Source of the DNA: Ophelia neglecta
Taxonomy: Eukaryota
Assembly: GCA_965285935.1 (NCBI GenBank)
Contig: OZ260662.1
Span: 109,430,001 to 109,494,000, forward strand
DNA length: 64,000 bases
Reading direction: 5' to 3'
Shown here: in pieces, positions 22,421 to 61,800 of the stretch
Position numbering within the stretch: the first letter of the stretch is position 1
Layout of the letters: each line of letters begins with the position of its first letter
The notes under the pieces: model-generated
The model's database searches: none
Told to the model about the DNA's origin: nothing
Seen by the model: only the letters and a program-made list of their open reading frames with translations
Program-made: the position numbers and the translations under genes

Positions 22421-23437
22421 TTATAAGCGTGATATTGTGGTCAACGAGGGGTGTGAAGTTACATTGGCTTGCCTTTTTCTTGGTGCGCAAAACATTGTTT
22501 TCATTTCTCTCCTAAATCTACTTCCCGTCAGACAATACATATAAAAGTTTACACTGTAATTGATGGACAGTAATAAATTACTAACATCATAAATGATTAA
22601 CAATTCGTTTTCATATTTAACCAAGTCTGCCGATGCAGCATTCATTCTATATAACCACAAACAAGTAAAGGGGAGGGTGCACAATATGAAAACAAAGCTC
22701 ACACACAACACTGTGACTGTCACGGATTTCTGATGATTGTTCTGTCCAGGTGAGTACTGTTCTGTGAATGCCTTTGAAATATGAAGCTTATATATAATAA
22801 CCAAATTTAATGATATAATTATTATTGAAGGGAAGAGTGACAATATACATAGATCCAATGCCGCGACCAACCTGCCTGCCTTTAGATTACTCCAAATGCA
22901 TATCTCATCGTATCCAGTCTGGGTCTTCAGCGACGAAAACACCAACACGGGTAGATCAATCACAGCAAGTACGGCAAAACTAATGATTAGTCCACAAGTG
23001 ACTTTTGATTTTGTGTATAGCCGAGCAGCCTTGAGTGGAAATACAACAGCGACACATCTTTCTACTGTTATACTCACAAGAATCCACGAAGAAAAATGAG
23101 TAAATAAAAACATCAAATATGACATAAGTTTGCAAAGTGCTATACTAGTAACTCTCCAGTCAATTGTAAAAGTAAGGAACAGCCAACTATGTAGCATGGA
23201 GATCACTAGGTTTATCGTGTCTGTAATTGCCAGGAATATTAAATGCAAACTGATCGAGGCCGATCTCAGGGATTTTCTCATCATTACCGCGGCAAACAAA
23301 GAGTTACCAATGACACCAACCACAACAACGACTGGCAATACATAGCGTGTCAGGCTCATCCTATATGTGGGGCTGGTCTCTTGTTCAGTGGATCCTGTAG
23401 AATTTCCAAACTCTGTTGGAGTGACCGTAGAATCCAT
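22421..23437 (-). CDS. Class A GPCR 'B', FMRFamide-receptor-like
   Basis: 338-aa ORF with 7TM: GVIGN, LAITD, VERC, CTLP, NYSVNFYMYCLTGSRFR. Confidence 0.95.
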   Translation of the reverse strand: MDSTVTPTEFGNSTGSTEQETSPTYRMSLTRYVLPVVVVVGVIGNSLFAAVMMRKSLRSASISLHLIFLAITDTINLVISMLHSWLFLTFTIDWRVTSIALCKLMSYLMFLFTHFSSWILVSITVERCVAVVFPLKAARLYTKSKVTCGLIISFAVLAVIDLPVLVFSSLKTQTGYDEICIWSNLKAGRLVAALDLCILSLFPSIIIISLNLVIIYKLHISKAFTEQYSPGQNNHQKSVTVTVLCVSFVFILCTLPFTCLWLYRMNAASADLVKYENELLIIYDVSNLLLSINYSVNFYMYCLTGSRFRREMKTMFCAPRKRQANVTSHPSLTTISRL

Positions 23438-25541: not shown

Positions 25542-26507
25542 ATGGAGTCCATGATAATTCCAACAATTTTTGACAATTCCACACGATCCACTGAAGAAGG
25601 GGCTAGTGCCAGATACATCAGGATGGGCTTTATGCATTATGTCTAGCCCTTCGTTGTAGTGTGTGGCATCATTGGTAACGCGCTGGCGATAGAAATGATG
25701 AGACAAACTCCAACACCGACCAGTTTGTATATGGTAAGGCTAGCCTATTCTAAAACTTTAACCCTAGTGCTATCCGTACTGGACAATAAGCTGCCCTCTG
25801 TGTTTTCATTGATATTAAAGCATCGAGTATGACAACGTGCAGGGAAATGACATATTTTATTTCTTTGTTCTCTCATATTTCGTCTTGGATTCTTGTACAA
25901 TACTACTATAGAAAGTTGCGTTTTATTTAAAGCAGGTCAGGGTTTTAGCAAACATAAATAAGCACCTATTGAACTTTTTTCGCCGTGCATGCTGTTGTTT
26001 ATGTCTACGTGGTAGTATTCACGCCGCTCTGATCTCTAATTGGAAATATTATTTGCAATTGGAAAAATCACATGTTTCAAGGATTGTTGGAGGCATTATA
26101 ACCCTGTATGCTGTTATTCTGCCCACCAGTTATTGGGAAATAATGATTATCATAGTTTAAAATGTTTTCATTGTGTAGAGACGTCATATGGCTAAGCAAT
26201 GCAAGCACAATCTGCCTCTGGGGAGACCATCTATCAGAAATCACTGTCAGCCACCTTCATGTTAATAGGCGTTGTATACATGCTATGTACACAGCACATT
26301 ATATGCGCACTGCTCTGTATAACGAATGCTGCCCCAACCGAACTGGTTAGATATAAACTGTAATTGCCACTTGTGGTGGATGCAGGTAAATTATTGCCCT
26401 CTTTTAATTACACTGTGCGTTTTTTCCTGTGTGGCCTGAGAGGAAATATATTTAGAAGAGAGCTGAAAGCCATGCTGTGTGCACCAAAACTAAGTAATTC
26501 AATGTAA
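25542..26507 (+). pseudogene. GPCR pseudogene 'C'
   Basis: Pieces in several frames: MESMIIPT, VVVCGIIGNALAI, TSLYMVRLA, SHISSWILV, FNYTVRFFLCGLRGNIFRRELKAMLC. Contains stops and frameshifts. Confidence 0.85.
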
Positions 26508-28106: not shown

Positions 28107-29069
28107 ATGGAAACGACGACGGATTCTTGGAATATGACAGAACAATCACCAGTAGAGACAAACTTGATTCCCATTCGGTTAATTCTGATGAAATATGTGT
28201 TTACCTCGGTGGTGGTTATCGGTTTAGTTGGAAACTCGCTGTCTATCGCTGTCATGACTAGGGCGTCACTGCGATCAACATCCACCAGTTTATACATGGT
28301 GGTGCTCGCCATCTCGGACTCTATAAACCTCCTTCTTTCCATTCCGTACATATGGATATATAATGTCTTTGGCATCAATTTGAGAATAAATAGCGAGATA
28401 TGCTGTAAAGTACTTACATACATGGTGTATGTGTTCGCTCACACCTCGTCTTGGATTCTTGCCAACATAACTATTGAGAGATTTGCCGCTGTGGCAGTGC
28501 CACTGAAAGCGAGGATATTATTCACCAGGAAGAAGGCTGCGTTTGGATTACTGCTGATGTTCTTGGTTCTTGCCACTGTCAATTCGCCAATATGGAGGTA
28601 TGTTTCGATTCTCCCTCTAGATGTCCATAAGGAATGCATTTGGGTCGATGAAATATCAGCAGTGGCCATAGAAGCGTTGGATCTGGTTTTATTTTCCGTT
28701 GTTCCATCCTGCATAATAGTGACTCTAAATTTGGCTATTCTCTATAAACTGAATAGATCAAAGTCAATACAAGGAAACTTTACATTGAACAATAGTAGTT
28801 ACCAGAAATCGCTTACCATCACCCTTATGTGTGTCAGCTCAGTATTTGTCCTCTGCACCTTACCACTTACATGTGCTTTGCTGTATTGGGAAACTATGCC
28901 AGTCAGTGGCCCGGATGTGTTCGACACGACATCAATGTTCCTTAGGGAGGTGTTTGTTACATTATTGTATGTGAATTATAGTGTAAATTTCTTTCTTTAC
29001 TGTCTAGCTGGTAAACGTTTCAGGGCTGAACTGAAAAACATGTTTTGTCAATGTGGAAACCTTACTTGA
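28107..29069 (+). CDS. Class A GPCR 'D', FMRFamide-receptor-like
   Basis: 7TM: GLVGN, LAISD, IERF, CTLP, NYSVNFFLYCLAGKRFR. ACCATGG start context at 28107. Upstream TTTTTCCAG is a likely 5'UTR splice acceptor. Confidence 0.93.
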   Translation: METTTDSWNMTEQSPVETNLIPIRLILMKYVFTSVVVIGLVGNSLSIAVMTRASLRSTSTSLYMVVLAISDSINLLLSIPYIWIYNVFGINLRINSEICCKVLTYMVYVFAHTSSWILANITIERFAAVAVPLKARILFTRKKAAFGLLLMFLVLATVNSPIWRYVSILPLDVHKECIWVDEISAVAIEALDLVLFSVVPSCIIVTLNLAILYKLNRSKSIQGNFTLNNSSYQKSLTITLMCVSSVFVLCTLPLTCALLYWETMPVSGPDVFDTTSMFLREVFVTLLYVNYSVNFFLYCLAGKRFRAELKNMFCQCGNLT

Positions 29070-31453
29070 TCTAGTTTTTTTTTACTAGGGATTGCCAGTT
29101 ACAATTTAAACAGGGCAACCCGGCGAGGGTTTACTCCTTAGTGGCCCTTATTGATACCTTTAAGGCTTAATACCAGATTGTCCACTGGTCTTGTAATATT
29201 TCTTATTATGATACAATCTACGTCTTCTAACAATTTATCCCCCAGGAGGCACTACGTCAGATTTTTATGCCCCAGGAAACATGCATACTAGGTGTATATG
29301 TGAAGGCGTTTATTCCTGGGAGCTACCTCCACTGGCATGCTAGTTTTTTTTGGCAATAGTGTTTTTTAATTCGCTTGATTTTGATGCCTTTCTTGACTGT
29401 CTGTATCCATAATGAAAATAAAATATGTGTTGCCATAAAACGACATATTTTAACAATCAACAGAGCTCTCATGAAGTTTAGTAATTTGCTTATAACATGT
29501 TTACATGTTTTATGCCAAAGTACATGGTATTGATTTTGGCAAATAAAAGACTAGGAATGACATAAAACAAAGCTTTGGTTTATTTTGTGCCTGAAAGGAT
29601 ATTCGTGTATTTAATATTTGATATATGTCCAGACACATCCGTGCATACTTCTCAGTATGTCAGCTAAATCAAAAAGAGCGAACGGAAAGAAAAAAATGTA
29701 CAAACAAATGTGATATTAGGAAATAATATTGTGTATTTGCCTTGCTACGTTCTGTATAGCTATTCATTAGGCTAGTAGGAATGACACCTACACTTATGCA
29801 ATAAACCGTTATATGCATGCTTTAAAGCAATGCCAAATCTCTGTCGCATTTGATATCGCGAAGTTACAAAAACTTTACGCTTATTACATTGGTTCTAGGG
29901 ACCAATTCTGTGAGCAAATAATCGGACAAATAAGGAAAGATTGTAAGATGTGTTTCAGTAATGTACGGTGTAGCGTAAAAGGAAACTGCGAGCCGCATGA
30001 CGTCTCGGAAAGGAAAGCGGTTTGCCCCGGTTGGGGTCGAAGGCTTGTGAAGACCGGGAGAACCGCTTTAACTTTGCGCCGCTAGTGGGTTTCTATCTTC
30101 AGAGGCGAAGAGGTACTTGCTGTGGATTCCGTTGGGTTCTTGAGGACCCGTTCGTAGACGTGGTTTCGGCTGGTAGAGTGCGTTAGCTGGTTAGTGCGTG
30201 TTGGCTGAACCCCGTTGGTCACGTAGACAGCAGTAGCAGGAACTCGTATTATGAGGGGAAACCATGTTAATTTAACATGAATAGGTCTTAATTAATTTGA
30301 TAGATAGAAAATAATTTTTTTGCTAGATTCACATAATCCAAAAGCAATTGCAATGAGATAAAACAAGTTTCAGTCAAAACCAGTGAGCAGAGGACCAAAA
30401 GTCCTGCATACAAGTAAGGTATGATGGATCAGCATCAGCTACCAAGCCGGCCCTAACTGTGCTTGAAAGAAGCAGTAAGCCTCGTCCCGTCTACTAATAT
30501 CAATACTGAAATCCGTCTTACTACTATTCTAAGACATAAAATCCACCGTATACAGCGCTGGCCCCTGGCGGAAGGAAAACCAGGCAACCAACTTTTGATG
30601 AAATCTCGTGACATCGCTGAGGTTTCGGAGGTTGCCCCCCCCCCCTCCCCCCCCCCGCACACACACACACTATTACAGCGGCGATGATTATCTGCAGTTG
30701 ACCCAGTTCACAGCACATTCTCGCAAGGATGGCTTCATGCCTGAGAGATGTCGGGTGTTGTTTGTCTGTTATTCTTATTTATGATCGTCTGGGATGACTC
30801 ACCGTTGAAAGCTCCGTTGCCGTGTGGAGAATACAAAAACACATTGCACATGAATCTTCTTTTGTTCGGAGGTAGCCTCTACAGCATTAAGAAGCAAACA
30901 GTGCCAAAGACACCCCACGGACACATGTATGTCCAAAGACATATGAACATTCTCACGGGACGCTAGATGAATACAGGTAACTTATGTGTTTGACTTCTTT
31001 AGTTATAAATAGGTCGTATTTGAAACACTGTGAAAAATTGCTTAAGGGGGCAATATAACCGAGGGGCTTGGTATTTAGTGTATGAGGTGGATTGTGAAGT
31101 TATGCTCTGAATGTTATGTGCACGTATACATCCACAGTCTGCATGTTGATGAAAGTCACAACAGGTGTTTGTTGAAGACTAACCCGGGGATGAATTAAAA
31201 GTGATAAAAGCTTGAACATATGGATAAATAGACCTCTATAATATCCATACCTCCCTTTTAATCAGCAAGTGCCATAATGTTGCATATTGTAAGCCCCACT
31301 TTTCAATTTTCATCTTCATTCAAGATTCCTTCTCTGAATGTAGAGTTTCTCCTTTCAAAATGTAAACTTCACATGATGGAAAATATTGCTTCAACCGGAA
31401 TGGGTAAATATCACAGGGGAAATTTGCCATTTGCCATTTTTTCCCTTTGAATG

Positions 31454-31697
31454 GGCATACTGAAAAAGCTGATACGAAATACCAGATACGAGACGCTGAT
31501 ACGAGATACGAGGTGTTTAAAACGTAGCCATATGGACTAGGTTAGGGTTAGGGTGAAGGATAAAGTAAGTTATGGTTTAGTTAGGTTGCTAGCTTAACCC
31601 TACCCCTTACCCTGTCATAATCCAACTCAATCTCAATTTTTCGTATCTGTGTATCTCGTATTTCCTTTGTATTTCGTATCAGGTTTTCCAGTATGCC
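31454..31697. mobile_element. MITE with 9-bp TSD (Mutator/MULE-like)
   Basis: TIRs GGCATACTGAAAAAGCTGATACGAAATAC / GTATTTCGTATCAGGTTTTCCAGTATGCC. TSD CTTTGAATG at 31445-31453 and 31698-31706. Empty site at about 46555. Confidence 0.88.
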
Positions 31698-33979
31698 CTT
31701 TGAATGCACCTGTATTTCACTTGAGGTTGTTTGTAGGCTTACTAGACAGGGAACATGTATATGAGCCATCATACGAAGAAACATCGTATAATCATACAGT
31801 TTGTAATACCCAGATTTATTCATAAACAATTCGTGCCGCACAGTCAGATAGAGTGTACACCCAGAGTTTTCTATGGCTTAGTTCCACACAATCAAATTTA
31901 ATTTGCCCAAATATTTATACATCAGTTCCACGCGGTAAAATATTTGTTACGGTCTAGGGAGGCTAGCGTTACCTTGACGTAAGTTTTGACTGACTAAAAT
32001 TAATGTAGCGTGCATACAGAAGCATAACTTCGAAGCTAGAAATAACTTACGGTTAATATTAACATAGTGTTTGAAATACACTGCAAAGAAGGTACTGAGT
32101 GAACTGCCTATTGCTTGATAGAAATAATCTGATAGCCCAAGGGTGTATACTTCGACAATTCGATTGGATAAAAAGGTATTTAGCCTTTGAATGAGGTGTC
32201 CTCCATATAGCGTGGAAATTCATGTCCACGAGACCTGCCCGAGTGCGAGCTTTGAAAATAATCATGGCTGCCATCGGCTCTCTGAGCGGCTACAGCGGCC
32301 GTAATATTGCCGACAAACTCGCTTATTCATAGGTAAAGAATAAATAGTGGTGCTAAGTCACACCAAGTATTATTTAATTGTATACGTCTTGGTTTATGTC
32401 ATTGGTTCGCTTATTACATTGGTTCTAGGGACCAATTCTGTGAGCAAATAATCGGACAAATTAGGAAAGATTGTAAGATGTGTTTCAGTAATGTACGGTG
32501 TAGCGTAAAAGGAAACTGCGAGCCGCATGACGTCTCGGAAAGGAAAGCGGTTTGCCCCGGTTGGGGTCGAAGGCTTGTGAAGACCGGGAGAACCGCTTTA
32601 ACTTTGCGCCGCTAGTGGATTTCTATCTTCAGAGGCGAAGAGGTACTTGCTGTGGATTCCGTTGGGTTCTTGAGGACCCGTTCGTAGACGTGGTTTCGGC
32701 TGGTAGAGTGCGTTAGCTGGTTAGTGCGTGTTGGCTGAACCCCGTTGGTCACGTAGACAGCAGTAGCAGGAACTCGTATTATGAGGGGAAACCATGTTAA
32801 TTTAACATGAATAGGTCTTAATTAATTTGATAGATAGAAAATAATTTTTTTGCTAGATTCACATAATCCAAAAGCAATTGCAATGAGATAAAACAAGTTT
32901 CAGTCAAAACCAGTGAGCAGAGGACCAAAAGTCCTGCATACAAGTAAGGTATGATGGATCAGCATCAGCTACCAAGCCGGCCCTAACTGTGCTTGAAAGA
33001 AGCAGTAAGCCTCGTCCCGTCTACTAATATCAATACTGAAATCCGTCTTACTACTATTCTAAGACATAAAATCCACCGTATACAGCGCTGGCCCCTGGCG
33101 GAAGGAAAACCAGGCAACCAACTTTTGATGAAATCTCGTGACATCGCTGAGGTTTCGGAGGTTGCCCCCCCCCTCCCCCCCCGCACACACACACACTATT
33201 ACAGCGGCGATGATTATCTGCAGTTGACCCAGTTCACAGCACATTCTCGCAAGGATGGCTTCATGCCTGAGAGATGTCGGGTGTTGTTTGTCTGTTATTC
33301 TTATTTATGATCGTCTGGGATGACTCACCGTTGAAAGCTCCGTTGCCGTGTGGAGAATACAAAAACACATTGCACATGAATCTTCTTTTGTTCGGAGGTA
33401 GCCTCTACAGCATTAAGAAGCAAACAGTGCCAAAGACACCCCACGGACACATGTATGTCCAAAGACATATGAACATTCTCACGGGACGCTAGATGAATAC
33501 AGGTAACTTATGTGTTTGACTTCTTTAGTTATAAATAGGTCGTATTTGAAACACTGTGAAAAATTGCTTAAGGGGGCAATATAACCGAGGGGCTTGGTAT
33601 TTAGTGTATGAGGTGGATTGTGAAGTTATGCTCTGAATGTTATGTGCACGTATACATCCACAGTCTGCATGTTGATGAAAGTCACAACAGGTGTTTGTTG
33701 AAGACTAACCCGGGGATGAATTAAAAGTGATAAAAGCTTGAACATATGGATAAATAGACCTCTATAATATCCATACCTCCCTTTTAATCAGCAAGTGCCA
33801 TAATGTTGCATATTGTAAGCCCCACTTTTCAATTTTCATCTTCATTCAAGATTCCTTCTCTGAATGTAGAGTTTCTCCTTTCAAAATGTAAACTTCACAT
33901 GATGGAAAATATTGCTTCAACCGGAATGGGTAAATATCACAGGGGAAATTTGCCATTTGCCATTTTTTCCCTTTGAATG

Positions 33980-34223
33980 GGCATACTGAAAAAGCTGATA
34001 CGAAATACCAGATACGAGACGCTGATACGAGATACGAGGTGTTTAAAACGTAGCCATATGGACTAGGTTAGGGTTAGGGTGAAGGATAAAGTAAGTTATG
34101 GTTTAGTTAGGTTGCTAGCTTAACCCTACCCCTTACCCTGTCATAATCCAACTCAATCTCAATTTTTCGTATCTGTGTATCTCGTATTTCCTTTGTATTT
34201 CGTATCAGGTTTTCCAGTATGCC
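33980..34223. mobile_element. MITE with 9-bp TSD, copied by the tandem duplication
   Basis: Identical to 31454-31697, with the same TSD. Confidence 0.88.
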
Positions 34224-35418
34224 CTTTGAATGCACCTGTATTTCACTTGAGGTTGTTTGTAGGCTTACTAGACAGGGAACATGTATATGAGCCATCATAC
34301 GAAGAAACATCGTATAATCATACAGTTTGTAATACCCAGATTTATTCATAAACAATTCGTGCCGCACAGTCAGATAGAGTGTACACCCAGAGTTTTCTAT
34401 GGCTTAGTTCCACACAATCAAATTTAATTTGCCCAAATATTTATACATCAGTTCCACGCGGTAAAATATTTGTTACGGTCTAGGGAGGCTAGCGTTACCT
34501 TGACGTAAGTTTTGACTGACTAAAATTAATGTAGCGTGCATACAGAAGCATAACTTCGAAGCTAGAAATAACTTACGGTTAATATTAACATAGTGTTTGA
34601 AATACACTGCAAAGAAGGTACTGAGTGAACTGCCTATTGCTTGATAGAAATAATCTGATAGCCCAAGGGTGTATACTTCGACAATTCGATTGGATAAAAA
34701 GGTATTTAGCCTTTGAATGAGGTGTCCTCCATATAGCGTGGAAATTCATGTCCACGAGACTTGCCCGAGTGCGAGCTTTGAAAATAATCATGGCTGCCAT
34801 CGGCTCTCTGAGCGGCTACAGCGGCCGTAATATTGCCGACAAACTCGCTTATTCATAGGTAAAGAATAAATAGTGGTGCTAAGTCACACCAAGTATTATT
34901 TAGTTGTATACGTCTTGGTTTATGTCAAAATTCACCTATTTACGCACATGGTTTGTGCTCTTTTGACACCTTGCCTAAACGGAGTATCATGCATAGCTAA
35001 ATGGCGGCCGTTTCCTAACAGTAGATATATAATTGTCTATAGGACGGTTCCACACAGTCAAATACACTGTAGGTTTCTTCCAAAATTACTTGTATTCAAT
35101 AAAATATGTGGATATAAATCCCACTTATCCATCTACCTATGATTTTGACAAATCCCACCTTCATAGCAAAGGGCTTAAACTAAACAAAACATATTCTTTC
35201 GTGATATTCTTGCCTGCCGATTTTGTATTTTATTGTAGTTACTTCAGGGGCGAAACACAAGCTAGCAGAAACTTAGTTCTCCGCCTTCGCATATTGTTAA
35301 CAGCCATCCTAATGTATTGTTTACTCGAGGCACACCTAACGGCTCGTGGACGTATTAGGGTTGGGTTTTGAATTGTGAGACAACTGTCGATGGCAAAAAT
35401 TTGTCTTCTGCTTACCTT

Positions 35419-35741
35419 GTTGTTGTTTGGGGTTTTACGTTGCTTTCAACACTTATCGGTCATATCGCCACAGTGCCTACTTGTGACAGTGGGCTCAATG
35501 CCGTCTTTAGAGTGCTGCCTCACTGGAGTACCTGCCGTAGACACCAGACAGGGAACCCCACCCAGTCACATTATACTGACACCGGGTTGACCAGTCCTGA
35601 TACTACCCCCGAAATACCAGGCGCCTGGCAGGGGAGCTATCAGACCCGATTTTGCGTCTTAGGTTTGACGCGATCGAGCTTCGAACCCCGATCTCCCACT
35701 TGCGAGGCGGACGCCCTAACCACTCAGCCACGCTTTGGTGG
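35419..35741 (-). mobile_element. tRNA-derived SINE (central domain resembles Meta/MESC SINEs)
   Basis: Minus-strand A box TGGCTGAGTGG and B box GGTTCGAAGC, core CCCGGTGTCAGTATAATGTGACTGGGTGGG, (AAC)n tail, 12-bp TSD TCTGCTTACCTT. Confidence 0.9.
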
Positions 35742-37583
35742 TCTGCTTACCTTACTCATTGATATGGTTATGTTAATCCTTGTTGGATTGGGGTCTACTC
35801 CTAGGAATGTAGCTCTCAAAGGCTCTCAGAAAGTTAGGGAAAGAGGAATAGTAGTTTGTGGAGCTGCAGCTTGTGGTTCCTGATTGTTTTTGGTCGATTC
35901 CAAGGACATTTCCTCTTGTACGATGTTGCCTGTCTGATCCTGCTTTTTTAGTGTTGTTATCAAATTACTTGTTTCTCGAACGTCAAAGGCAAATTAATAA
36001 TTTTGTATGTGACATTTGAATTTTGTCACTTCGACGCGCATGTCATTATAAAATCATTGTTAAGTATTTGCTGACTAATGCGACTTCTCATAGGTATACT
36101 ACTTGAAACAGAAGGTATACTACTTGAAACAGAACTTGTATTTAATTGCTCAATATAGAAACGACTGTTATGCGTCAGTGTATTTCTTATGAAATATACA
36201 TTGTAGATAAAGTTATTACATATGAGATATGGTCACACTTATGTAAAAACAAAGCAACACTTAAAAAGGCACCTTTTTATGGTACAATGCTAAATGTTCT
36301 ATTGCTAATTACTATCATAAGTCGAAGTCTTTTCTTTTTCTTTGATATTTTGCCTAGTACAATAATTTACAGGCTCACAGGGACACTAATTGTTATTTGC
36401 GAATTAAGAAAGTTAACCCTATCAATTTATGTTGATTTGTTTGCATATGTCAAATTATGCTCTCATCGGAAATTAAATACATTTTCTGTTAACATATATG
36501 GAACCCCAGTATTAATTCCATTCTTCCTACGAATATGTCTTGTGATGTCTTGGGGTCGGGGAGCGTCACACCGGGGCTGGTGGGTCCGAGTGCTTCCCTC
36601 CTTGCTGGAACTACGCTTCCCGTATCTGATGGTAACACCGGATAAACTCAATTCAAAGAGAAATCAAATTGAAAATCTATGTTTGACATTTTTACATAGA
36701 CAAAGAGGCCAACGGAAAAGGTTAAGATTCATCATACATCACTTTTCAGAATAGATTAATCAATAATGTGTCTATGGTACGTGATCATATTGTTTTAATG
36801 GACGTGCCCTAATGATATCTGTAGCTTGAAGCTGCAGCTATGGCGCGCCGTGGTTCACCCCGAACGACTCCAATTTGGACATCCATTCAGTCGTTTTTGT
36901 TATAGATAGCATAGTTTGGGTAGACATTCTAAGGCATTGTATTTCGAGCAAGGTATTTTCTTTGTAATTAAATCCGACTGAAGACATTGCCCAAAACATT
37001 CTTACTACCACTAATTGTTTCTTATGCAATTAACTCAATCTTGTGTAATATTAAGAAATATTATGATTATTTCATCAATTAAGAAATGTCCAACTCCAAA
37101 GCGAATCCACTTTGATAAACGTTGCTACGAGGTTATACGTAGGACATCACATACATGTAGTAAGGGTAATCATAATTATTTTAAATCTTAATATTTAAAA
37201 TCATTGAGTTAATTGCAATGTATTTGCGGGTTCTTTAGGAAATTATTCAGAATATCATAAATGATGGAGGAGTGGTCAATTTAATTATCTAATCCCATTT
37301 TAAAAGTCGGTGATATACACCAAAGATGAAACGCACCAGGCGGGAATGAGGAAGACCAAAATGATTCATAGAAATTTGACGCCCGGACAACGGGCACCTG
37401 TTGTTTATTGGGGAACCGGTTATCGCATTAGCTATGATCCCTCAATTCTGCTACTGGTGTGAACCGCGGGAATTAACTTTTTGTCTAAATATCGCACAAA
37501 TATCAGAGTATGAGAAAAACGTGGGACGCCATATGAAACATGCTAAATGTACTACTAAAACAATTTTTATTTTTATTTCAGCC

Positions 37584-40458
37584 ATGAGTAGACAACTATC
37601 TATACTGCTTTTCTGCTTATATGTGCCCAAGGCGGATGCTCGTGTCAACAATGTGTGTAAGACATCACTTAACTCATATGGAATAGAAGAGGACTGCAGT
37701 TCTATGGATCTCACCCATGTACCCAGTTATTTATCTTCATTTATTGTAGGATTGAATCTACGATTGAACAATATTTCGTTCTTATTGGCAGATAATTTTG
37801 GTCGATATCCAAGCCTGCGAACACTTGATTTGAGTTTCAATCAACTTGAAGTCATTGTCGATGGTGCATTCAGCGCATTGTCACAATTAGAAACATTGGA
37901 CGTTCGTTTTAACCGATTAACCTACGGTAAGGACAGCTTCTCTTGCATCTCCATCAAACATCTTAACTCTTTAAAGGTCCTAAAGCTTGATTCGGATATA
38001 TATCCTTTGACGCCAAGTCTTCATCAATGTGTCTGCGTTACCTATGTTAAGGGTCCTTTATATCAGTAGATGCAAACGTTTCAAAAGTTTCCTACCGACT
38101 GAGAATCGAATGACTCACATTCAAGAATTAGACCTCACTCGAATTAAAGTTCACCGTGTGTCAAGACGCTTCATGGAATACTTCCGGAATAGCTCTCTGA
38201 AGGCGATATCGTTCCGAAACGGTTATATAGACACTCTGCAGGAAGGGTTATTCGCAGACTTGGACAATCTTCACACTATCAACTTGGCTTCTAATCCCAT
38301 TTCTCTACGAGACGCTGTCTCTGCTCTGGCACATCTTGGAACAACCCCTCTCAGGTCTCTCATACTGGACCCGAAAGAATACTTAGCAAAGAGCGACACC
38401 CTCAATAGTAGTGCTTTCTGTAACGATGTCGGAGACAGGCTGGAACGTCTTACAATTAGGAACATTCGGACTTTTACGTTAGATTTTTCCTTTCTAAAAT
38501 GCTTAAAGAAACTAAGAATATTATCAATGTCACACATATTTATATTACAGTTTTCATTGAATGGCCAACTAATCGAATCTGAAAATTTCTTTCAAACAAT
38601 GTCTGCCTGGTGTCCGATTCAACTAGAGCTTTTGGACTTAAGTTATCCTCTCAGTGCGCGGAGAGTTTATCAACAAGCGTTCAGCAATTGTAAGAGATCG
38701 AACCCAACTCCCTGCAACTTACAACCGGAAGATTTTTTTCCAACAAAAAGCGTTATTACGACTTTGGAGAGTGACATTGTACCGACTAGGCAAAGCACTG
38801 AAATTTTCAACCACACGGAAATCGTTCATCGTCTGCCTTCGAACTTACCATACTTCTACATGTCCCACTTTAAGGGGTTGTGTCGCTCTGACGTCACAGA
38901 GAAGGGGGCATTTTATTTTGACCCTATGAATTCTTTATATGCTCTTAATTTTAGCTTTTCTTCTAGTATGTGCTTCGTTGGAAAATTTAGACCTACAGCT
39001 GGATTATACGGGCTTCCAGCCTTGGTAAATTTGGATGTTAGCCACATAGAAATCACAGAACTATTTCCAATACATGGCTCGGACAACATCAAATTTGTAA
39101 ATGCTTCTCATAATAAATTGGGTTCTAAAATAGGCTGGGACATTGCAAAAGAACTCCATTGGAACACCTCTGCACTTGAGCTGTTGGACCTTTCCAACAA
39201 TCTCATTCATTTTGTTGGTCGGGATCTATTACGTGTCTGCCCAAATCTACGAATAGCTAATTTCGCCAACAATCAGCTATTAAATATCGACATTACTTTT
39301 TATCAAACAGGGCTACAAATACTCGACCTTTCCCACAATTCATTGGCATTTTACCCTAGAAACTTCACGGAGAATTTAATCCAAATGACTAATACAACTC
39401 TAGCTGTAGACTTGTCAGCAAACCGATTTCAGTGCAGTTGTGATCTAGTTAATTTTGGTATTTGGTTGAATGTCACAGAAATAACCATCCTAGGAAAAGA
39501 AAAGTACAAGTGTTTCTCCAATAATACCAACAAAGGATATGTAAACATACTAAAGATGGAACCAGCTGACTTCTGTCATGACCGCTTACCTTTGCACATT
39601 TATACGGCGTACATTATTCCACTTATATCAGTAGTAGCCACGTTTTGTTCCTTGGTTTTTGCTGCGCTAATTATATATAGATACAGATATCGTATACTAC
39701 TTCGTTATTATTTGTTACGATTTCAGCTGTGCAACATTGGGCAAGACCATAAACAATTTGATGGTTATTTACTGTATAATAGTGAATCAGACAATGACAG
39801 ATTATTTGCAACTAGGTTCCTCAGAGATCGATTGGAAGAGGAGCGAGGATTTACACTGTTTATTCCTGATCGAGACGCGAGGGTCGATGCTGCAACAGCA
39901 GAGGAAATTGTGAGAGGAATGATGGAATCAAAAAGCATACTTATATTGCATAGTCCTTCCTTCTTTTACAATGAGGTACATGACCGGAATAATCTTACCA
40001 GCACTCATGCGGATGTTCTGGCATCGAAGGAGGTTAGTCATTCTCTTATTATCAGTAGCGGAAGTGAATTGTTTGACCATGGGGATGATGATGCTAAGGA
40101 AAGCAACCTCATGCAAGTACAAGAACAAAAAAACTCTTTATCTGCTGTAAAACCTATGTACCACAATAACTCTGAGTGTCCCGAGTCCGAAACAATGCTT
40201 AATGAAAAAAAAGTTCACCCAGACAATTGCAGATACAATGAGTGGGTAGACTTCGCATTGCTTACAGCCATGAGATTCATGAGAGATAAACGGATATGTA
40301 TAATAAGACTCGGAGACGTAAATCAGGATAAAGTTTCCTCTAAATGGCACCCTCTATTGTTTCCGAATCCTTTTATGTGTCCAATAGCTGTGCTTAATGC
40401 CGGTAGCAAAAATTTTCTTGTTAAAATATCAAATGTTCTTCTTGGTAAAATGGCATAA
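37584..40458 (+). pseudogene. Toll-like receptor copy 1, frameshifted
   Basis: ORFs 37401-38069 and 38029-40458 together match intact copy 2. There is a 2-bp deletion in a TG run at about 38030. This could be a sequencing error. Confidence 0.8.
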
Positions 40459-40540
40459 GAAACACATATTCGCTATTCATTAATAAACATTTACGTGTCT
40501 AATAAAGCGTTTAGTAATGTTTTCTGTCCTTGTGGAACTT

Positions 40541-40864
40541 CTACCAAAGCGTGGCCGAGTGGTTAGGGCGTCCGCCTCGTAAGTGGGAGATCGGGGTTCG
40601 AAGCTCGATCGCGTCAAACCTAAGATGTAAAAATAGGTACTGATAGCTCCCCTGCCAGGCGCCTGGCATTTCGGGGGTAGTATCAGGACTGGTCAACCCG
40701 GTGTCAGTATAATGTGACTGGGTGGGGTTACCTGTCTGGTGTCTACGGCAGTAGAGGCAGTGAGGCAGCACTCTAAAGAGGGCATTGAGCCCACTGTCAC
40801 AAGTAGGCACTGTGGCGATATGACCGATAAGTGTTGAAAGCCACATAAAAACCCCAAACAACAA
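40541..40864 (+). mobile_element. tRNA-derived SINE
   Basis: A box TGGCCGAGTGG, B box GGTTCGAAGC, (AAC)n tail, TSD CTTGTGGAACT(T/A). Confidence 0.9.
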
Positions 40865-41586
40865 CTTGTGGAACTATTTAAGTAAGAGGTTAAACCAAGA
40901 AACATCAAGTGATTATTAACCCTCAATGCTTTGCCTTGATCTGTTAGATATCGGAGTGTTGCAGTGCAGACTCGTATTTAGCCAATTAGGCTATTTATTA
41001 ATAAATTAATAATTCTATTTCTTGTAGTCAAACTGCTCTCAGTAAGTGCTAGGATACACATTCCGTGTCCAATGATAATGTTGTGATTTCATTTAAAGGA
41101 CGCCAATACTAACACAATGGGATTGGACAGTGCGAGTTATAGGGAACATGGCAAGTTTGGTGTAATGTGGCTGATTCGACCGCAGAGGAATAATTATCAA
41201 AATTGATGTGGGTCATGGAAAGTTTTAAATCGGCTTGCCACTAGATTTAATAATAGTGCCTATAGCATATACTGGTTGTGTGCTAACCTTCTGTCCATCC
41301 TCCCCCCCCCCCCCCACACTCCCAGCCCGGTTGCCCCAAAAGTGGTTTGCAAACACTTATCCGATCAATGGCCGTAGGATTGACACTTCAATTCCAAGGC
41401 CGACACGCTAACAACTACGATCTGAAGTACACTGGTAGTTTATTGATCGGCGCACATTATGAATACTGATGAGTTGTGCGCTTAACTACTGGTTATACAG
41501 CCCAAACAGAAGGGTATATCAACTATTTCTCCTGTGAGGGATCACACATTTTGTTTCATAATTTTTGTGCAAAGTCTTGTTTCGTA

Positions 41587-53049: not shown

Positions 53050-53771
53050 CTTGTGGAACTATTTAAGTAAGAGGTTAAACCAAGAAACATCAAGTGATTA
53101 TTAACCCTCAATGCTTTGCCTTGATCTGTTAGATATCGGAGTGTTGCAGTGCAGACTCGTATTTAGCCAATTAGGCTATTTATTAATAAATTAATAATTC
53201 TATTTCTTGTAGTCAAACTGCTCTCAGTAAGTGCTAGGATACACATTCCGTGTCCAATGATAATGTTGTGATTTCATTTAAAGGACGCCAATACTAACAC
53301 AATGGGATTGGACAGTGCGAGTTATAGGGAACATGGCAAGTTTGGTGTAATGTGGCTGATTCGACCGCAGAGGAATAATTATCAAAATTGATGTGGGTCA
53401 TGGAAAGTTTTAAATCGGCTTGCCACTAGATTTAATAATAGTGCCTATAGCATATACTGGTTGTGTGCTAACCTTCTGTCCATCCTCCCCCCCCCCCCCC
53501 ACACTCCCAGCCGGGTTGCCCCAAAAGTGGTTTGCAAACACTTATCCGATCAATGGCCGTAGGATTGACACTTCAATTCCAAGGCCGACACGCTAACAAC
53601 TACGATCTGAAGTACACTGGTAGTTTATTGATCGGCGCACATTATGAATACTGATGAGTTGTGCGCTTAACTACTGGTTATACAGCCCAAACAGAAGGGT
53701 ATATCAACTATTTCTCCTGTGAGGGATCACACATTTTGTTTCATAATTTTTGTGCAAAGTCTTGTTTCGTA

Positions 53772-54653
53772 ATGTCGTGTTGTTGTTGTGCCGGCGGTGA
53801 AGTGGGGCCTTCAGAAGGTGCAGTGGTCAAGAAAACGAGTATTGACTTCGATATCCCTGTACAAGCTCTCACATTTGACACTAAACGCCAGAGACTGGTG
53901 GTCAGGAGCCTGGATACCACTGCCCCAATCAAGGTGTTTAGCCTCGATGGTATACTACTACAGGAGATGGGAAAAGATGTGGACGGAATCATCCATCCGT
54001 GGCGCTTGGGATCTATATCTATTGACACTAAACGCGACCTATATATGATCCCATGTCTAGGCTACCTCCAACTACTAGATACGGCGAACGGGGCTGTGCA
54101 GGGAAGTGTCCAGGTAGGACAGACGCTAGGTGGTGTGGCCTATGTAAATGAGAGCGACTCCTATGTAGTATCTGACAGAGATGAAGTGCATCATTTCTGG
54201 GGCGATATCTTCGTGATAAACGCCAGCACCAAACAGGTGATCCTAAAGATTGGGTCACCTGAACATTCGAGAGGAATGTTCAAAGCTCCAGTTGATCTGT
54301 GTGTGGGGAGAGTAATTGGTATTGATACTCCTGTTATAGTTGTCAGTGAAGCTTCCCATAATAACGGAGCTGTAGTTATATGTGACATGGGGGGAACGCA
54401 CATCATGAAATTTGGAGGCTTGGATACCCCGGCTGGAGCAGCAATAGACGCTGCTGGACGCATCATAGTGTCTGAATCCGGCTCCCGGAGAGTTGAGGCT
54501 CACTGGGTTGAGAATGGCCAGAACAAGCGGCACTGCCTGCTTAATACCGGCTACTGCACCATACCATTGCGTGTGGCTATAGATCCTATCAAGGGAGCAA
54601 TGGCGGTTTTGATGGGCCCTAAAAAGGTTGAAATTTACCACACAGTGGGTTAG
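53772..54653 (+). CDS. Stand-alone NHL-repeat-like beta-propeller protein with N-terminal Cys cluster
   Basis: First ATG gives MSCCCCAGG. Blade-like motifs FKAPVDLCV, GLDTPAGAAIDAAGRIIVSESGSRRVEAH, PLRVAIDP, GSISIDTKRDLY. Resembles the C-terminal NHL region of TRIM-NHL proteins. Confidence 0.8.
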   Translation: MSCCCCAGGEVGPSEGAVVKKTSIDFDIPVQALTFDTKRQRLVVRSLDTTAPIKVFSLDGILLQEMGKDVDGIIHPWRLGSISIDTKRDLYMIPCLGYLQLLDTANGAVQGSVQVGQTLGGVAYVNESDSYVVSDRDEVHHFWGDIFVINASTKQVILKIGSPEHSRGMFKAPVDLCVGRVIGIDTPVIVVSEASHNNGAVVICDMGGTHIMKFGGLDTPAGAAIDAAGRIIVSESGSRRVEAHWVENGQNKRHCLLNTGYCTIPLRVAIDPIKGAMAVLMGPKKVEIYHTVG

Positions 54654-56217
54654 GATTGGTAGTTATAATGACAGCGATGTATATATTCATATACATGTGA
54701 CTGCATGGAAAGGTATACTGATTATAAACCTCAGTACTCGTCAAAATGGAATACGAGTATTTGTTGGATATTGTTTAGTTTTTCTATTCCAATAGGTAAA
54801 TATTGGCGCCCTTAATATCAGAAGGAGGACCCAAGAATTACCCGACGATACATGTTGAATTCTGATATAAACTTTATGAATTTCAACAGAATAAGTTTTG
54901 AATAGTCAGTGAACATCCATGTCATTTTGTTTACTACTGTACAGGCTTAATGCCAATTAGTGCTTAAATAATTGTATATAAATGATATTAGTTATATATA
55001 CTTAGTTTGCTAAACATTATATATTTGATGAAATAAACTACTGCGCGTCTTACAATTGGGTTTATCTACTGCTACCGTGAAAAATACAAAAATATATCCT
55101 GTGTTTTAGTATATATTGATATAAGATCATTTCAGATTGATGTAGCAAAGCCCTATTCGGCAAAACCTCTTGAACTTATCAGGCAAAGGACTGTAAATTT
55201 TATGTAAGCTTGGCTGAATTTATTTGCACTGAGCCTAGGGTACATATCGTATTTGAATTCAAGCATCTGTAAATATACAAGTCCCATATAAAAGGCTGCA
55301 CAATTGTCAACAGGTAATGTTTGTGCTCTATAAGAGTAGGACGACAACTGGGAGGCAACCTTTGTATCACACTTTGAATCATATTCAAACATCACGCAAA
55401 GTATGTATCTACAATCTTCCACAGAATACGGTCGATATATCAAAGGCATACAAGACATAGGGAAATATTAATAAATGATTCGCAAGGAATATAACACATG
55501 ACATTTTCACAAACCTAATCATGTTTGATGCTCCCATGTTTTATGCTCAGCGGCTGTTCCTGAAATATTGCGGGTATATTGCGAGTTATTAGTTTTCGGG
55601 GAGGGGGGGGGGGGTGCGGGAGGGGTGGGAGGAAGGGGGTGATGTTACAGTTGAACCTAGAGGGAATGTCTTGATTAATTAAGTAATTAAAACTTCTATG
55701 CTTCAACTGCGAATGTTTCATCATTCATACTGTGGCTCTTCTCACATAACGTCATAAGTCCAGCATGTTTTAGTAAGATTGGAAACAATGTCAGCACTGG
55801 GTACGGTATGTATATGTAAGATGGACCGATTAACCGGAAATCTACATTACACGACTTGTCTAGTTGTTTGCTCTCTCTAGTCCGCATGCGCCGATCTAGC
55901 GACATTTATGGAGTTCGTTTGCAAGCATATAAACACCCATTTGCTATACCTACAATGAACTGACACTGACAAATAGATCGTATTGCATACATTAAGGCCA
56001 TTATCTCTTTACAAAAAAATTTCCGTCCAGCAAGAAGCAGCCATCTATCGAGACTATCGATCGTCCCATTGACAACAATAATGCAGTTTCTTTACTTTGA
56101 ACCTGCCTCTTACAACTTTTATATTAAATTTTTTCAAGTTAATGCGTGGTAAATATGCACACATGATTGCAGACTTTAGAGATACTCATCAAAGGTTGGA
56201 CTGTATTTTGTTTTTCA

Positions 56218-57268
56218 ATGGAGTCCATGATAATTCCAACAATTTTTGACAATTCCACACGATCCACCGAGGAAGGGCTAGTGCCAGATACATCAGGATG
56301 GGCTTTATGCATTATGTCAAGCCCTTCGTTGTAGTGTCTGGCATCATTTGTAACGCGCTGGCGATAGTCATGATGAAACAAACTCCAACATCGACCAGTT
56401 TGTATATGGTAAGGCCACGCTATTCTAAAACTTTAACCCTAGTGCTATCCGTACTGGACAATAAGCTTCCCTTGGTGTTTTCATTGATATTGAAGCATCG
56501 AGTATGACAATGTGCAGGGAAATGACATATTTTATTTCTTTGTTCTCTCATATTTCGTCTTGGATTCTTATACAATACTACTGTAGAAAGATATCTGGCT
56601 GTAGTGCTTTCGTTAAAGCAAGTAAGGTTGTTAGCAAAAATGATCAAGCACCTATTGGCCAGACTTTTTTCGCCGTGCTTGCTGTTGTTTATGTCTACGT
56701 GATGGTATTCACGCCGCTCTGATCTCTAATTGGAAATATTATTTGCAATTGGAAAAATCACATGTTTCCAGGATTGTTGGAGGCATTATAACCATGTATG
56801 TTGTCACTCTGCCCTCCAGTTATTGGAAAATAATGATTATCATAGTTTAAAATGTTTCATTGTACAGAGACATCATATGGCTAAGCTATGCAAGCACATT
56901 CTGCCTCTGGGTAGATCAGCTATCAGAAATCAGTGTCAGCCACCTTCATCTTTATAGGCGCTGTATATATGAGGTGTACACAGCACATTATATGCGCACT
57001 GCTCTGTATAACAAATGCTGCCCCGACCGAAGTGGTTAAATATAAACTGTAATTGCCACTTGTGGTGGATGCAGGTAAATTATTGCCCTCTTTTAATTAC
57101 ACTGTGCGTTTTTTCCTGTGTGGCCTTAGAGGAAATATATTTAGAAGACAGCTGAAAGCCATGCTGTGTGCACCAATTCTAAGTATTCAATGTCAAGGCG
57201 AACCCAACTTCGGTAAGAACGTCTCGCCTATAATGAGCGAAATGAACAAATCATGTGACATTGGATAA
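56218..57268 (+). pseudogene. GPCR pseudogene C'
   Basis: Paralog of 25542-26507, broken across ORFs 56298, 56504, 56730 and 57053. Confidence 0.85.
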
Positions 57269-57604
57269 CCCAAACATAAACAGGCAAGTGGCTACGATCT
57301 ACCCAAGGTTTTGGAAATCACGCTATAGTCCAAAGATTAAACTAGTACATTATCTTTAAGTTTTTCTATCGAAATATACTTTTTTCCTTAAAATAGTTGA
57401 TAATCACTAACACGACATATTGGCAACTGTCTGATTTTGTCCGTACACTGTAATCTATTGAATTGATTGTGTAAACACAAATGAAATATCGTATATCGGT
57501 ACAATTCATTTTCTCATTGATAAAACTATAGGAATTATTAGTTTTGGTTATCTTTGCTGAACTATGTATATTATCGTAATATATTAGTATTATCGTAATA
57601 TATT

Positions 57605-58013
57605 AGTGGCCATAGAAGCGTTGGATCTGGCTTTATTTTCCGTTGTTCCATCCTGCATAATAGTGACTCTAAATTTGGCTATTCTCTACAAACTGAAAAT
57701 GTCAAAGTCAATAGAAGGAATCTTGGCGTTGAACAACACTAGTTATCAGAAATCGCTTACCATCACCCTTATGTGTGTCAGCTCAGTATTTGTCCTCTGC
57801 ACCTTACCACTTACATGTGCTTTGCTGTATTGGGAAACTATGCCAGTCAGTGGCCCGGATGTGTTCGACACGACATCAATGTTCCTGAGGGAGGTGTTCA
57901 TTACATTAATGTACGTAAATTATAGTGTAAATTTCTTTCTTTACTGTCTAGCTGGTAAACGTTTCAGGGCTGAACTGAAGAACATATTTTGTCAATGTGG
58001 AAACCTTACTTGA
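57605..58013 (+). pseudogene. 5'-deleted GPCR D' (TM5-TM7 only)
   Basis: 135 codons nearly identical to the C-terminal part of D. About 1.77 kb of upstream sequence is deleted and there is no ATG start. Confidence 0.88.
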
Positions 58014-58075
58014 TCTAGTTTTTTTTTACTAGGGATTGCCAGAAGAGTCGCCAACAATGTACAAAAAGTGAAAAT

Positions 58076-58270
58076 TACTCTTTCTCCTTCAAAACGTCAA
58101 TTATAGCGTGATTTTCTTTATACTGTCTGACCGGCAGTCGGTTTAGAAAAGAGCTCAAAGACATGTTCTGTTCTTTGAGATGCAACTACGGTGATCGGAG
58201 TGCCACTCCGGGCCTGAAATCCTTATCTGCTAAGGTACATGTTCAAAATTTACAGGTTACCAAAAAGTAA
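58076..58270 (+). pseudogene. GPCR A' 3' fragment (TM7 + tail)
   Basis: Matches 15337-15535, with a small deletion and an earlier stop. Confidence 0.85.
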
Positions 58271-61200
58271 ACGAATACCTTATTCGCCGTGTTTCATAAT
58301 CACGTTTATTAGCAACTTGTGGGTCTTTTAGCATTGAGTTGTATTGTTCTGTTTTTTTATTTACATATAACGAATACAATTCTACCTGAACCAGCAAAAA
58401 ATACATTGCGTCAGCTACTCCACTTATGTTTGTATGGACTGAATAATCAATGATATACTCTCCAGTCACCAGCTACTCAGCAATTATCAGAATAATCATT
58501 CCATGTTACATACAAGGTGTAATATACGCTATATATAAGTATGCTTAAATATATTTATACATATTCGTGGATTTAAGGCTGGCTATATTAGCTGTTATTT
58601 ACGCTTGTATTGCTTCTAGAAAATCTAATTATATTAACCTACATGTAGATACGCTATATATAAGTTTAAGTTTGGTGTATGCTTAAATATATTTATACAT
58701 ATTTATGGGTTTAAGGCTGGCTTTATTAGCTGTTATTTACGCTTGTATTGCTTCTCGTAAATCTAATTATAGTAACCTACATGTAGATACGCTAAGAACC
58801 AGAAACTTTTCATCTGAAGCCTAGTTAACTACGAGTTAACAAACTGAAAGCAATTAATATTTTTGTGATTAATATGTAGTAGTTTATTGAGAAAAAGAAG
58901 TAATTTGTTTATAGTAATACTTTTCATATCACCACGTGTGTCGCTTTATCAAAATGGTAAATTAAGCTCTAATAAATAAGATACTTGATTTTAGACAATA
59001 TCATTGTTTTTGGTATTTTTATAACTCAAAGAACAACCCCCTGCTCTCTTAGGCTTTATTGAAGTCTTACTGCTTATTTGCTATTGATGCTTATTGTACC
59101 AGACCATTGTTATATGTGTAGTTATACCCCCATCATCCAAATCCATTATTATCTTTATGTTGAACGATTTCGTGGCCTCCTTAACAGAAACGCCATTACT
59201 ACTAATCAACATTACCATTCTAAAACAAAAAAGGTATTGTCTGTTTGTGTGCATGGCGGACGGTGGCAGTGTCATATTACAAATAAGCGAATTAATGGAG
59301 CAGGTTTCTAATGTCAGTAGCAGAGCTGGCCTATACACATTTACTATATCAAATATTAACACAAATAGATATGGGGCGATGTAGGTGGACTTTCGTGACG
59401 ACAAGCAGGGCGAATAACAAGCATCGTAATTAAAGTCAATATGTTCCTTCGTGTTCACAGAACCTGGTACATTAATAAATTATCGCAATATCAATTTATA
59501 TGACTGGCAACAGCTAGCAGTAACAAGAGAATTTGATTTAAGAATTGCCATTTCTCATAAAAAAAATCCCACAAAGAGCCGAATTATAGCGAAAAGGAGA
59601 AGCAGCAATTGGCAAATGTTTAAATAATTTTAACACGATGACCAATTACGTTAATTAGAACTATAGTACTAAGAGAAATCACTGTAATATAGAGAAATAT
59701 GTGCGTAAGGGGGTGGGTTGGCGTTGGTGGATGTGGCAGAAAACTCTATGATATGTTTAACATCACAGCATAAAACAACCAAACATTCCTGGAGTAGCCT
59801 AATCACTCATTTCTTAAGTAGTATCCATTCTTCGAGCTGGTGAAAATTGACTTAGTGCAATACCACAGTTGATCAATTTGTTTAATTAACAAAATATATT
59901 TCATCCCCCAATTAATCCAGTTAGATCAATACACATGGGCTTGTAGAATCTGTAGCTAGTGCCATTTTACATTATAGGTTTTTTTTTAAATCTATTTGCT
60001 TGCAATGAAAAAAAGATAAACGCATTTGTAGATTAATACCAATGAGACTTTGGGTCGTTTTCGTGCGACGGAATAATGATTGTGAACGCATGTTTGTAGA
60101 CTAGAATATGTGTTATATTTTATTTATATATAATGATGTTTATTACGCATAGTATAAGGCGTCCAAATGGAACGTACCCACTGGCATTGTGTGCTGTCAG
60201 GTTTAAATATCCTATCCATATTGCCATATTTTAACATTTAATTATTGGTTTTTAAGTAACACATATGCATTAAATTTGCTACCTGTGACTTGGGTGATGC
60301 TTGCAGACAAATATATGATTTATATTTACCGCAATGCATGATGTGCTTTTGATTGAGACTTTTCATCGAGCGACATCATTAGTAGAACTATAAAGGTAAA
60401 ACGTCTATTATCTTGTCTTTGATTTGCAGAAATTGGGATAACTCCAGCTCACTCTATTTATACGTCGGCTGTACTGATGAGGGAGTGCCCCCCCCCCCCC
60501 CCGCCCTCGCCACTAGAAACATTACAACATCCGCAAAAATAACCATTAGTTGGCCATGGATACACACATTGGAAGTAAATATTTTATGATAAAAAATTGT
60601 GCAATTGTCCAGTACAGCATTCAGCCAGAGTCTGTGCGGGCACATCGCAGCGCAGTCAGAATGCCTTAAAGCTAAAAGAGGTAGCACGAAATTGTAAAAC
60701 CCCTTCGGCCCGAAAACAGCGGTGAATAAAAATGCATCAGCAAGGCATCATATCGAAAAGACAAATCAGTGAAAGCATTTCGGGAACTCGATTAATCAAC
60801 GCTGGCAATACGTGTAACATTTTTATTTATTTTGATATTGTTATGGTGATTACAAACATATGCTGTATTGAAATGGATAGGAAAAGTCTATAAAAACAGT
60901 CGATTACGCCCAGGGATGTATCATATACTCTGAACAAGTATTGACCCAACCAGTTCATCAGTGCGGGGTTGCCATTCATTAATTACTCACTCGGATTGAT
61001 TACTGGGTAAACTTATATATCATGGATTCTAATACTAAGCTGATACCACAATTTGACATTGGTCACATGCAAGATGTACTGTTGGTCCTTAATTTATTCA
61101 TATTATAAAACGCAAATGATGAGCTGTTAATGTATATATATTATTTATTCATAAATACTTATGCGTTACTTTGTCCCCGTTACTTTGTCCCCCATATCGG

Positions 61201-61439: not shown

Positions 61440-61610
61440 CCGCAGCACTGGGAAGTGTTTATCTGTTGTTTGGCGGTTGTCTATTTTTATGTAGCCACTT
61501 TTCCGCGTGGATCCTTGTTAAAATAATAATCCAGAGATTTGTGGCCATAACATTTCCTTTCAAAGAGGCAGTACTCTTTCCCAGACGATGGCCCGGTTGA
61601 GAATTAGATT
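61440..61610 (+). pseudogene. GPCR TM3 fragment (paralog of 20920-21075)
   Basis: FLCSHFSAWILVKIIIQRFVAITFPFKEA. Confidence 0.8.
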
Positions 61611-61800
61611 TGAATGTAGAAATTCTAACTTCTGTTGCCACCATATTATGGATATTATTCCATGTCACAACACCTTGATATTTCATAGTTCTTTAGGTGA
61701 GAGAATAAACATTTTGGCACATGTAATTTTGTGCTGCTTCTAGTACAATAACTATGAAGTTCACTATTTATAGTGAACATTTTAAAGAGCAGCAGACGTC
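61610..61800 (-). mobile_element. Degenerate LINE ORF2 C-terminal fragment
   Basis: Minus-strand translation FTINSELHSYCTRSS.KLHVPK...KYQGVVTWNNI resembles LINE ORF2 C-termini. The sequence is absent from the paralogous block. Confidence 0.5.

Follow-up and report, generated by a model that had tools for sequence, protein, structure and literature searches.

The window analysed here is a stretch of 64,000 nucleotides of Ophelia neglecta DNA (contig OZ260662.1, positions 109,430,001 to 109,494,000 of the forward strand) in which a Toll-like receptor (TLR) gene and a stand-alone gene for an NHL-type beta-propeller lie side by side in two copies, with rhodopsin-type G protein-coupled receptor (GPCR) genes on either side. 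We consider it probable that these neighbours are two independent passengers, one a signalling-impaired TLR that may act as a decoy or co-receptor and the other an orphan TRIM propeller with no ligase portion, and that there is no special tie between them. Self-BLAST of the window reveals a direct duplication, 29328-43269 against 44369-55459, whose outer limits are those drawn in a first-pass annotation of this DNA. Each block contains one TLR and one NHL open reading frame (ORF), both on the plus strand and, as that annotation had noted, about 1.1 kb apart (1128 bp in copy 1 and 1121 bp in copy 2). The features of the two blocks are as follows.

29328..43269, no strand: duplicated block 1 (self-BLAST), which holds a 2.5-kb internal tandem repeat at 29878-34927
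44369..55459, no strand: duplicated block 2 (self-BLAST)
37533..40458, plus strand: TLR copy 1, whose reading frame is broken near 38027 by loss of 2 bp from a TG repeat, with the same insert at 39976-40242
41587..42466, plus strand: NHL copy 1, whose reading frame is broken near 42119 by loss of 2 bp from a G run
49723..52650, plus strand: TLR copy 2, an intact single ORF of 975 aa from the first ATG, with leucine-rich repeats (LRRs), one LRR-CT, a transmembrane segment at about 698-716 and an interrupted TIR
52168..52434, plus strand: TIR insert of copy 2, 267 bp or 89 codons, stop-free and in frame, residues 816-904
52651..53771, no strand: TLR-NHL spacer of copy 2, 1121 bp, with two AATAAA signals, a ~320-bp dispersed repeat at 52732-53050 and no TRIM remnant
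53772..54653, plus strand: NHL-type beta-propeller copy 2, intact, 293 aa, starting MSCCCC, an orphan C-terminal domain of an invertebrate TRIM-NHL family
51253..54937, no strand: homogenised tract, 0.2-0.6% diverged from 39061-42750

The first-pass annotation took the two genes for a cassette that had been duplicated as a unit, and this does not hold. The duplicated unit measures 11-14 kb and is larger than the two genes. The flanks of the cassette blocks have diverged by 3.9-8.3% and the GPCR-region duplicates by 4.8-13.5%, and from this similarity it follows that the cassette was duplicated at about the same time as its GPCR neighbours, within the 11-14 kb block. The GPCR pseudogenes C and C' have stop codons in common; C had therefore died before it was copied, and dead DNA was duplicated too. 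Nor are the two cassettes equal, since TLR copy 1 is truncated after about residue 167 and NHL copy 1 after about residue 178 by their respective deletions, and the only intact pair is that of copy 2. What was found is thus not a pair-specific duplication that has been kept intact. Co-duplication, which was the sole evidence for a functional link, can be understood as hitch-hiking of the cassette in a patchwork segmental duplication, along with which pseudogenes and non-coding DNA were copied. The first-pass annotation had mentioned hitch-hiking as a caveat, and with copy 1 broken it is now the better-supported reading. Block 1 alone additionally contains a near-perfect tandem duplication (29878-32401 against 32408-34927, with 5 substitutions and 1 indel, or 0.2%) that is either very recent or an assembly effect.

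Divergence between the two copies changes along their length. It is 6.3% in the 5' flank of the TLR, 2.2% over the first ~510 TLR codons and 0.2% over the remaining TLR, and then 0.3% across the spacer and 0.6% across the NHL ORF, rising to 8.3% past position 54937. The homogenised tract spans the TLR's C-terminal half, the spacer, the NHL ORF and the nearer part of its 3' flank. Within the tract 4 of 1405 non-coding positions differ, as opposed to 69 of 932 outside of it (Fisher p=1e-23). Because non-coding DNA is equally identical, protein-level selection alone is ruled out as the origin of the tract, which instead points to recent gene conversion or to assembly polishing. There is a partial parallel in mammalian TLR1/TLR6, where conversion has covered the last LRRs, the cap, the transmembrane segment and most of the TIR (PMC2077338), so that here too tandem paralogs diverge in their N-terminal LRRs while their C-terminal region is homogenised. 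The Ophelia tract differs in that it continues through the spacer and the neighbouring gene, is known from one genome and has one frameshifted copy.

The intact receptor is a single-cysteine-cluster TLR. Its LRR ectodomain (Pfam LRR_8) ends in a single membrane-proximal LRR-CT whose C635-x-C637 is the only CxC motif, and a signal peptide and one transmembrane segment are indicated by a hydropathy scan (not a dedicated predictor), whose only hydrophobic windows are those at residues 11 and 698; the TIR follows. A strong splice acceptor at 49771 directly precedes Met18 at 49774, which suggests that the true start is probably Met18 and that there is an intron in the 5' untranslated region. The unconverted 5' half differs between the copies at 19 nonsynonymous and 13 synonymous codons (pN/pS 0.41, p=0.016) and shows the signature of purifying selection. 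A homologue search scored 10 of 7322 candidates, with a best cluster that includes oyster XP_022330119.2 at 26% identity, and a word-index search with the TIR region matched 0 of 922 candidates. The single-cysteine-cluster (vertebrate-type) TLRs that have expanded in invertebrates, such as the oyster cluster and the arrays of sea urchins, likewise combine a single ORF, LRRs, one LRR-CT, a transmembrane segment and a TIR with tandem copies and pseudogenes. For example, sea urchin TLRs are mostly single-exon and partly in tandem arrays, with 67 of 253 being pseudogenes (PMC3367398). The Ophelia TLR departs from these relatives in its TIR, which has no Pro-Gly and no Box-3 Trp and carries an 89-residue insert found in none of 5 aligned relatives.

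The N-terminal half of this TIR matches TIR_2 at E 6.7e-5, under the curated cut-off, and IL1RAPL1 at E 4e-7. The half after the insert has no significant match by itself in Pfam and further searches (E 0.71 to the relative P0169) and is therefore quite diverged; it contributes 18 bits to a five-sequence TIR profile when the insert is omitted. TLRs that recruit MyD88 possess a Box 2 motif, RDxxPG, in the BB loop and a Box 3 motif, FW (PMC7075850). In the Ophelia TIR R781-D782 are retained and are followed by A-R-V-D with no Pro-Gly, and F962 is followed by Leu in place of Trp. The first-pass annotation was correct that the usual adaptor-recruiting residues are missing, and judged by these motifs and the presence of the insert the TIR looks incapable of usual MyD88 recruitment. 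The FW motif is also absent from one named vertebrate TLR5 match, which makes loss of Box 3 alone a weak criterion, and P0169 likewise has a degenerate TIR, such that TIRs of this kind are not unique to this TLR. An enzymatic (NADase) TIR was rejected as there is an Ala where the catalytic Glu, which we take to lie four residues after the helix-C Trp, would be expected. Inhibitory TIR receptors of the SIGIRR type are membrane receptors with a TIR that is without key signalling residues. The Ophelia TIR also is without key residues, and its best matches among solved structures are IL-1R-family TIRs with SIGIRR among them, although the SIGIRR match is not significant. Unlike these receptors it has an LRR rather than an Ig ectodomain, and an inhibitory role would be by analogy only.

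In the TIR an insert separates strand C from the helix-C Trp; it begins with GT, finishes with AG and has the 9-bp direct repeat TACAATGAG at its two boundaries (52159-52167 and 52426-52434). Omitting exactly this repeat-flanked segment of 267 bp gives the best of 126 offsets against the TIR profile (39.8 bits versus 21.9 plus 1.6 with the insert in place), and we therefore regard this as a true insertion with a target-site-like duplication. A stop-free stretch of this length occurs in 0.3% of 10000 shuffles and in 166 of 4445 (3.7%) overlapping non-coding windows, which is moderate evidence of coding. Of its residues 74% are polar or disorder-type. No homologue of the insert was found, with no Pfam match, PDB matches at chance level (E 0.18 or worse) and no copy in the window beyond the one in cassette 1. 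An origin as a miniature inverted-repeat transposable element was rejected, there being no inverted ends by eye and a single copy.

The neighbouring ORF encodes a complete propeller in the predicted model (pLDDT 91.6, 23 strands), of which residues 1-10 are disordered (pLDDT below 50). NHL structures lead both the sequence and the fold matches, with Thin, TRIM2 and Brat the closest; the top Foldseek match is 6d69 and the best TM-score among the listed matches is 0.74, to TRIM2 7qrv. A full-library search returned 1342 matches at E up to 0.001, and from the best 150 of these we chose 32 relatives that match along the domain, at 24-47% identity. Twenty of the 32 are 400 aa or longer and a RING or B-box was present in 11 of 30 scanned, one of them below the Pfam cut-off, though the short relatives may be partial ORF calls. 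Those looked up (20) comprise 19 ENA proteins and 1 JGI/IMG protein. A separate observation is that P0001-P0164 represent a large RING/B-box/coiled-coil/NHL family, its genes apparently without introns and located on unannotated ENA contigs; one cluster has several per contig, on contigs of equal length. A word-index search with the NHL matched 0 of 1520 candidates, and a tree of propellers placed the Ophelia sequence on a long branch with no supported sister group. The propeller is thus shared by sequence and fold with TRIM-NHL proteins (Thin/TRIM32-like, TRIM71, TRIM2/3, Brat and the invertebrate TRIM-NHL expansion), from which the Ophelia protein differs in having no RING, B-box or coiled coil, a unique Cys-rich start and a long branch. 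A profile of the relatives found no RING, B-box or coiled-coil remnant in six frames of the window or in the spacer, and a hidden TRIM N-terminus in the spacer was accordingly rejected.

The start of the propeller protein, MSCCCC, is encoded by a (TGT)4 run that places four Cys at residues 3-6 on the disordered tail. It occurs in 0 of the 32 relatives, only one of which has two or more Cys in its first 10 residues and by inspection is a B-box fragment. N-terminal cysteines can serve as S-acylation membrane anchors. By analogy, S-acylation of the propeller N-terminus is plausible, while N-myristoylation is ruled out by the lack of Gly-2. Of the interaction-type, lipid-anchored neighbour proposed in the first-pass annotation, the interaction-type domain is retained as a complete predicted propeller; the lipid anchoring is unsupported, its one basis being the MSCCCC start.

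The same annotation described a GPCR array in the order A-B-C-D and C'-D'-A'-B' interrupted by the cassettes. The flanking arrangement is correct, but the array is largely debris. Its intact rhodopsin-family members are A, B, D and B', of which B and B' are on the minus strand.

14487..15545, plus strand: GPCR A, intact rhodopsin-family seven-transmembrane receptor, with an ATG one or two codons before the start used here
22421..23437, minus strand: GPCR B, intact
25542..26489, plus strand: GPCR C, a pseudogene disrupted by numerous stops and frameshifts
28107..29069, plus strand: GPCR D, intact
56218..57175, plus strand: GPCR C', pseudogene
57606..58013, plus strand: GPCR D', last 135 codons only
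58076..58279, plus strand: GPCR A', reduced to its 3' end (a match over 55 codons), which the filler links to the D' flank
62511..63527, minus strand: GPCR B', intact, 87% identical to B
58047-58077, 57569-57607 and 63846-64000: rearrangement junctions (templated filler, 19-bp tandem repeat and inverted piece)

The right-hand side is a patchwork in which a 31-bp filler copied from 24512-24542 links D' to A', the 19-bp tandem repeat is found where C' meets D', and beyond B' there is an inverted piece of 59 bp. B and B' differ at 43 nonsynonymous and 22 synonymous codons (pN/pS about 0.58) and have weak Srw and Srsx Pfam matches, as would be expected of a fast-evolving, chemoreceptor-like family. 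Small additional GPCR fragments are present in spacers (20958-21068, 61481-61651 and 24142-24232) and the array seems to run on beyond the end of the window. Between A and B there is also a degenerate long interspersed nuclear element (about 16800-19859, minus strand) with endonuclease and reverse transcriptase fragments. Self-BLAST does not find this element in the A'-B' spacer, so it was gained or lost after the duplication.

In both copies two AATAAA signals follow the TLR stop (in copy 2 at 24 and 43 nt), which favours separate TLR and NHL transcripts. The ~320-bp dispersed repeat, which we judge to be SINE-like (short interspersed nuclear element), has four copies (35419-35742, 40543-40865, 48107-48429 and 52732-53050), with those in the spacers inverted relative to the two upstream; no tRNA was found and there is no Rfam match in 29000-56000. 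Splicing could alter how either gene is read. The insert has the GT-AG ends, length divisible by three and absence of stops that are features of exitrons (PMC4484396), and repeat-derived acceptors are known for introns that arise from target-site duplications (PMC11282704). An exitron-like or target-site-duplication intron in this single-ORF gene, with the direct repeat at its ends, would upon splicing restore an uninterrupted TIR and provide two isoforms, and the superior profile score upon its exact removal is in keeping with this. However, its GAG acceptor has no pyrimidine tract and, when scored with crude matrices, ranks only at the 8th percentile among the window's 3487 AG sites, and 10 nt upstream there is a CAG that scores better but is out of frame. 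The insert also differs from such introns in having no inverted repeats by eye and no further family members in the window, and a spliced TIR would still be without Pro-Gly and the Box-3 Trp. We consider such an intron quite unlikely, and the insert is more likely to be translated as a flexible loop than to be precisely spliced. It is more doubtful still, and in our estimate very improbable, that the NHL ORF is a terminal exon belonging to some longer gene or forms a fusion with the TLR through splicing. Most of its relatives are C-terminal domains, its frame is open for 38 codons upstream of the ATG and a good in-frame donor lies inside the insert (52225, 99th percentile), but the nearest in-frame acceptor is mediocre (53759, 79th percentile) and the best acceptor (53510) is cut off from the NHL ORF by stops. 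Additionally, the polyadenylation signals after the TLR, the fact that full-length relatives are single long ORFs and the absence of a TRIM remnant in window and spacer all argue against an exon.

Part of the picture could also stem from the assembly, either as haplotypes laid in tandem, as polishing that homogenised the tract or as read errors that only appear to disrupt an intact copy 1. Since both copy-1 frameshifts are 2-bp losses in simple repeats, read error is possible there; the 2.5-kb tandem repeat nearby at 0.2% divergence is suggestive as well, and in sea urchin the traces showed a few apparent TLR pseudogenes to be intact, although they confirmed 80% of lesions (PMC3367398). Yet six other ORFs in the window, totalling about 7.9 kb, are free of frameshifts, and the rearranged order, templated junction filler and flanks that are 4-13% apart represent more than simple haplotype duplication suggests. 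We therefore think an assembly effect unlikely. An assembly gap of 150 Ns is at 847-996. The idea of the first-pass annotation is a linked receptor-adaptor module, in which an S-acylated propeller would dock on the altered TIR, or else on the insert within it, and relay or restrain signalling without MyD88. Adjacency and joint homogenisation of the two genes, the degenerate TIR boxes, the Cys cluster on the disordered propeller N-terminus and the integrity of both genes in copy 2 are consistent with this. There also is a precedent, as the NHL-like region of TRIM56 binds the TIR adaptor TRIF in TLR3 signalling (PMC11067339), an NHL-like domain thus being active in a MyD88-independent TLR pathway. 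However, TRIM56 binds an adaptor and needs its coiled coil as well, and the excerpted text of that report mentions no genomic linkage to a TLR. Moreover, the larger block accounts for the co-duplication, the linkage is seen once, in a block along with which dead DNA was copied, both genes of copy 1 are broken, none of the 32 relatives has the Cys cluster and the propeller has no effector domain with which to relay a signal. A TLR-NHL gene pair was not found in the searched portions of the open-access literature. We regard a linked module as unsupported, though not refuted, and as quite improbable. Its fullest form, in which the TLR gave up MyD88, gained the insert as a docking site and works with a dedicated, linked and S-acylated propeller cut from a TRIM ligase, with conversion keeping TIR and propeller matched during diversification of the ectodomain and the partnership possibly being switched on and off by splicing of the insert, is more improbable still. 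Should the pair prove conserved and its members bind, an animal TLR would have a sensor-helper design with genetic linkage, TIR adaptors would gain a new class, and the case would bear on how hundreds of expanded invertebrate TLRs signal via few known adaptors.

We thus return to two independent passengers as the probable reading. Two independently working, single-ORF immune-type genes would have become neighbours in an unstable region and been copied together with GPCRs as passengers of the patchwork segmental duplication. Gene conversion would later have homogenised 3.7 kb comprising the TIR-coding half, the spacer and the NHL gene, after which copy 1 decayed or was mis-sequenced. The intact TLR may still bind ligand via its selected ectodomain but, with the BB-loop Pro-Gly and Box-3 Trp absent and an 89-residue polar insert present, would itself be unable to nucleate MyD88, and it could act as a decoy, a damper or a heterodimer co-receptor. 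The propeller, which is possibly S-acylated, would most likely serve TRIM-type pathways as a competitor or tether. Several points weigh against this interpretation. The conversion tract joins exactly the TIR half and the NHL gene, as co-evolution would predict. That the propeller has stayed intact and well folded although it shares only 24-47% identity with its relatives implies long-term selection, and TRIM56 with TRIF is a precedent for NHL domains in TLR signalling (PMC11067339). The decoy function is deduced from motifs only, and since the linkage is known from one genome an older linkage is conceivable.

If two independent passengers is the correct interpretation, as is most likely, then this locus would be a local case of the birth-and-death evolution that shapes clusters of immune and GPCR genes in invertebrates. 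Within it there are two modest curiosities, namely a TIR interrupted by an in-frame insert with sharp boundaries and a TRIM-NHL propeller that is an orphan yet intact.

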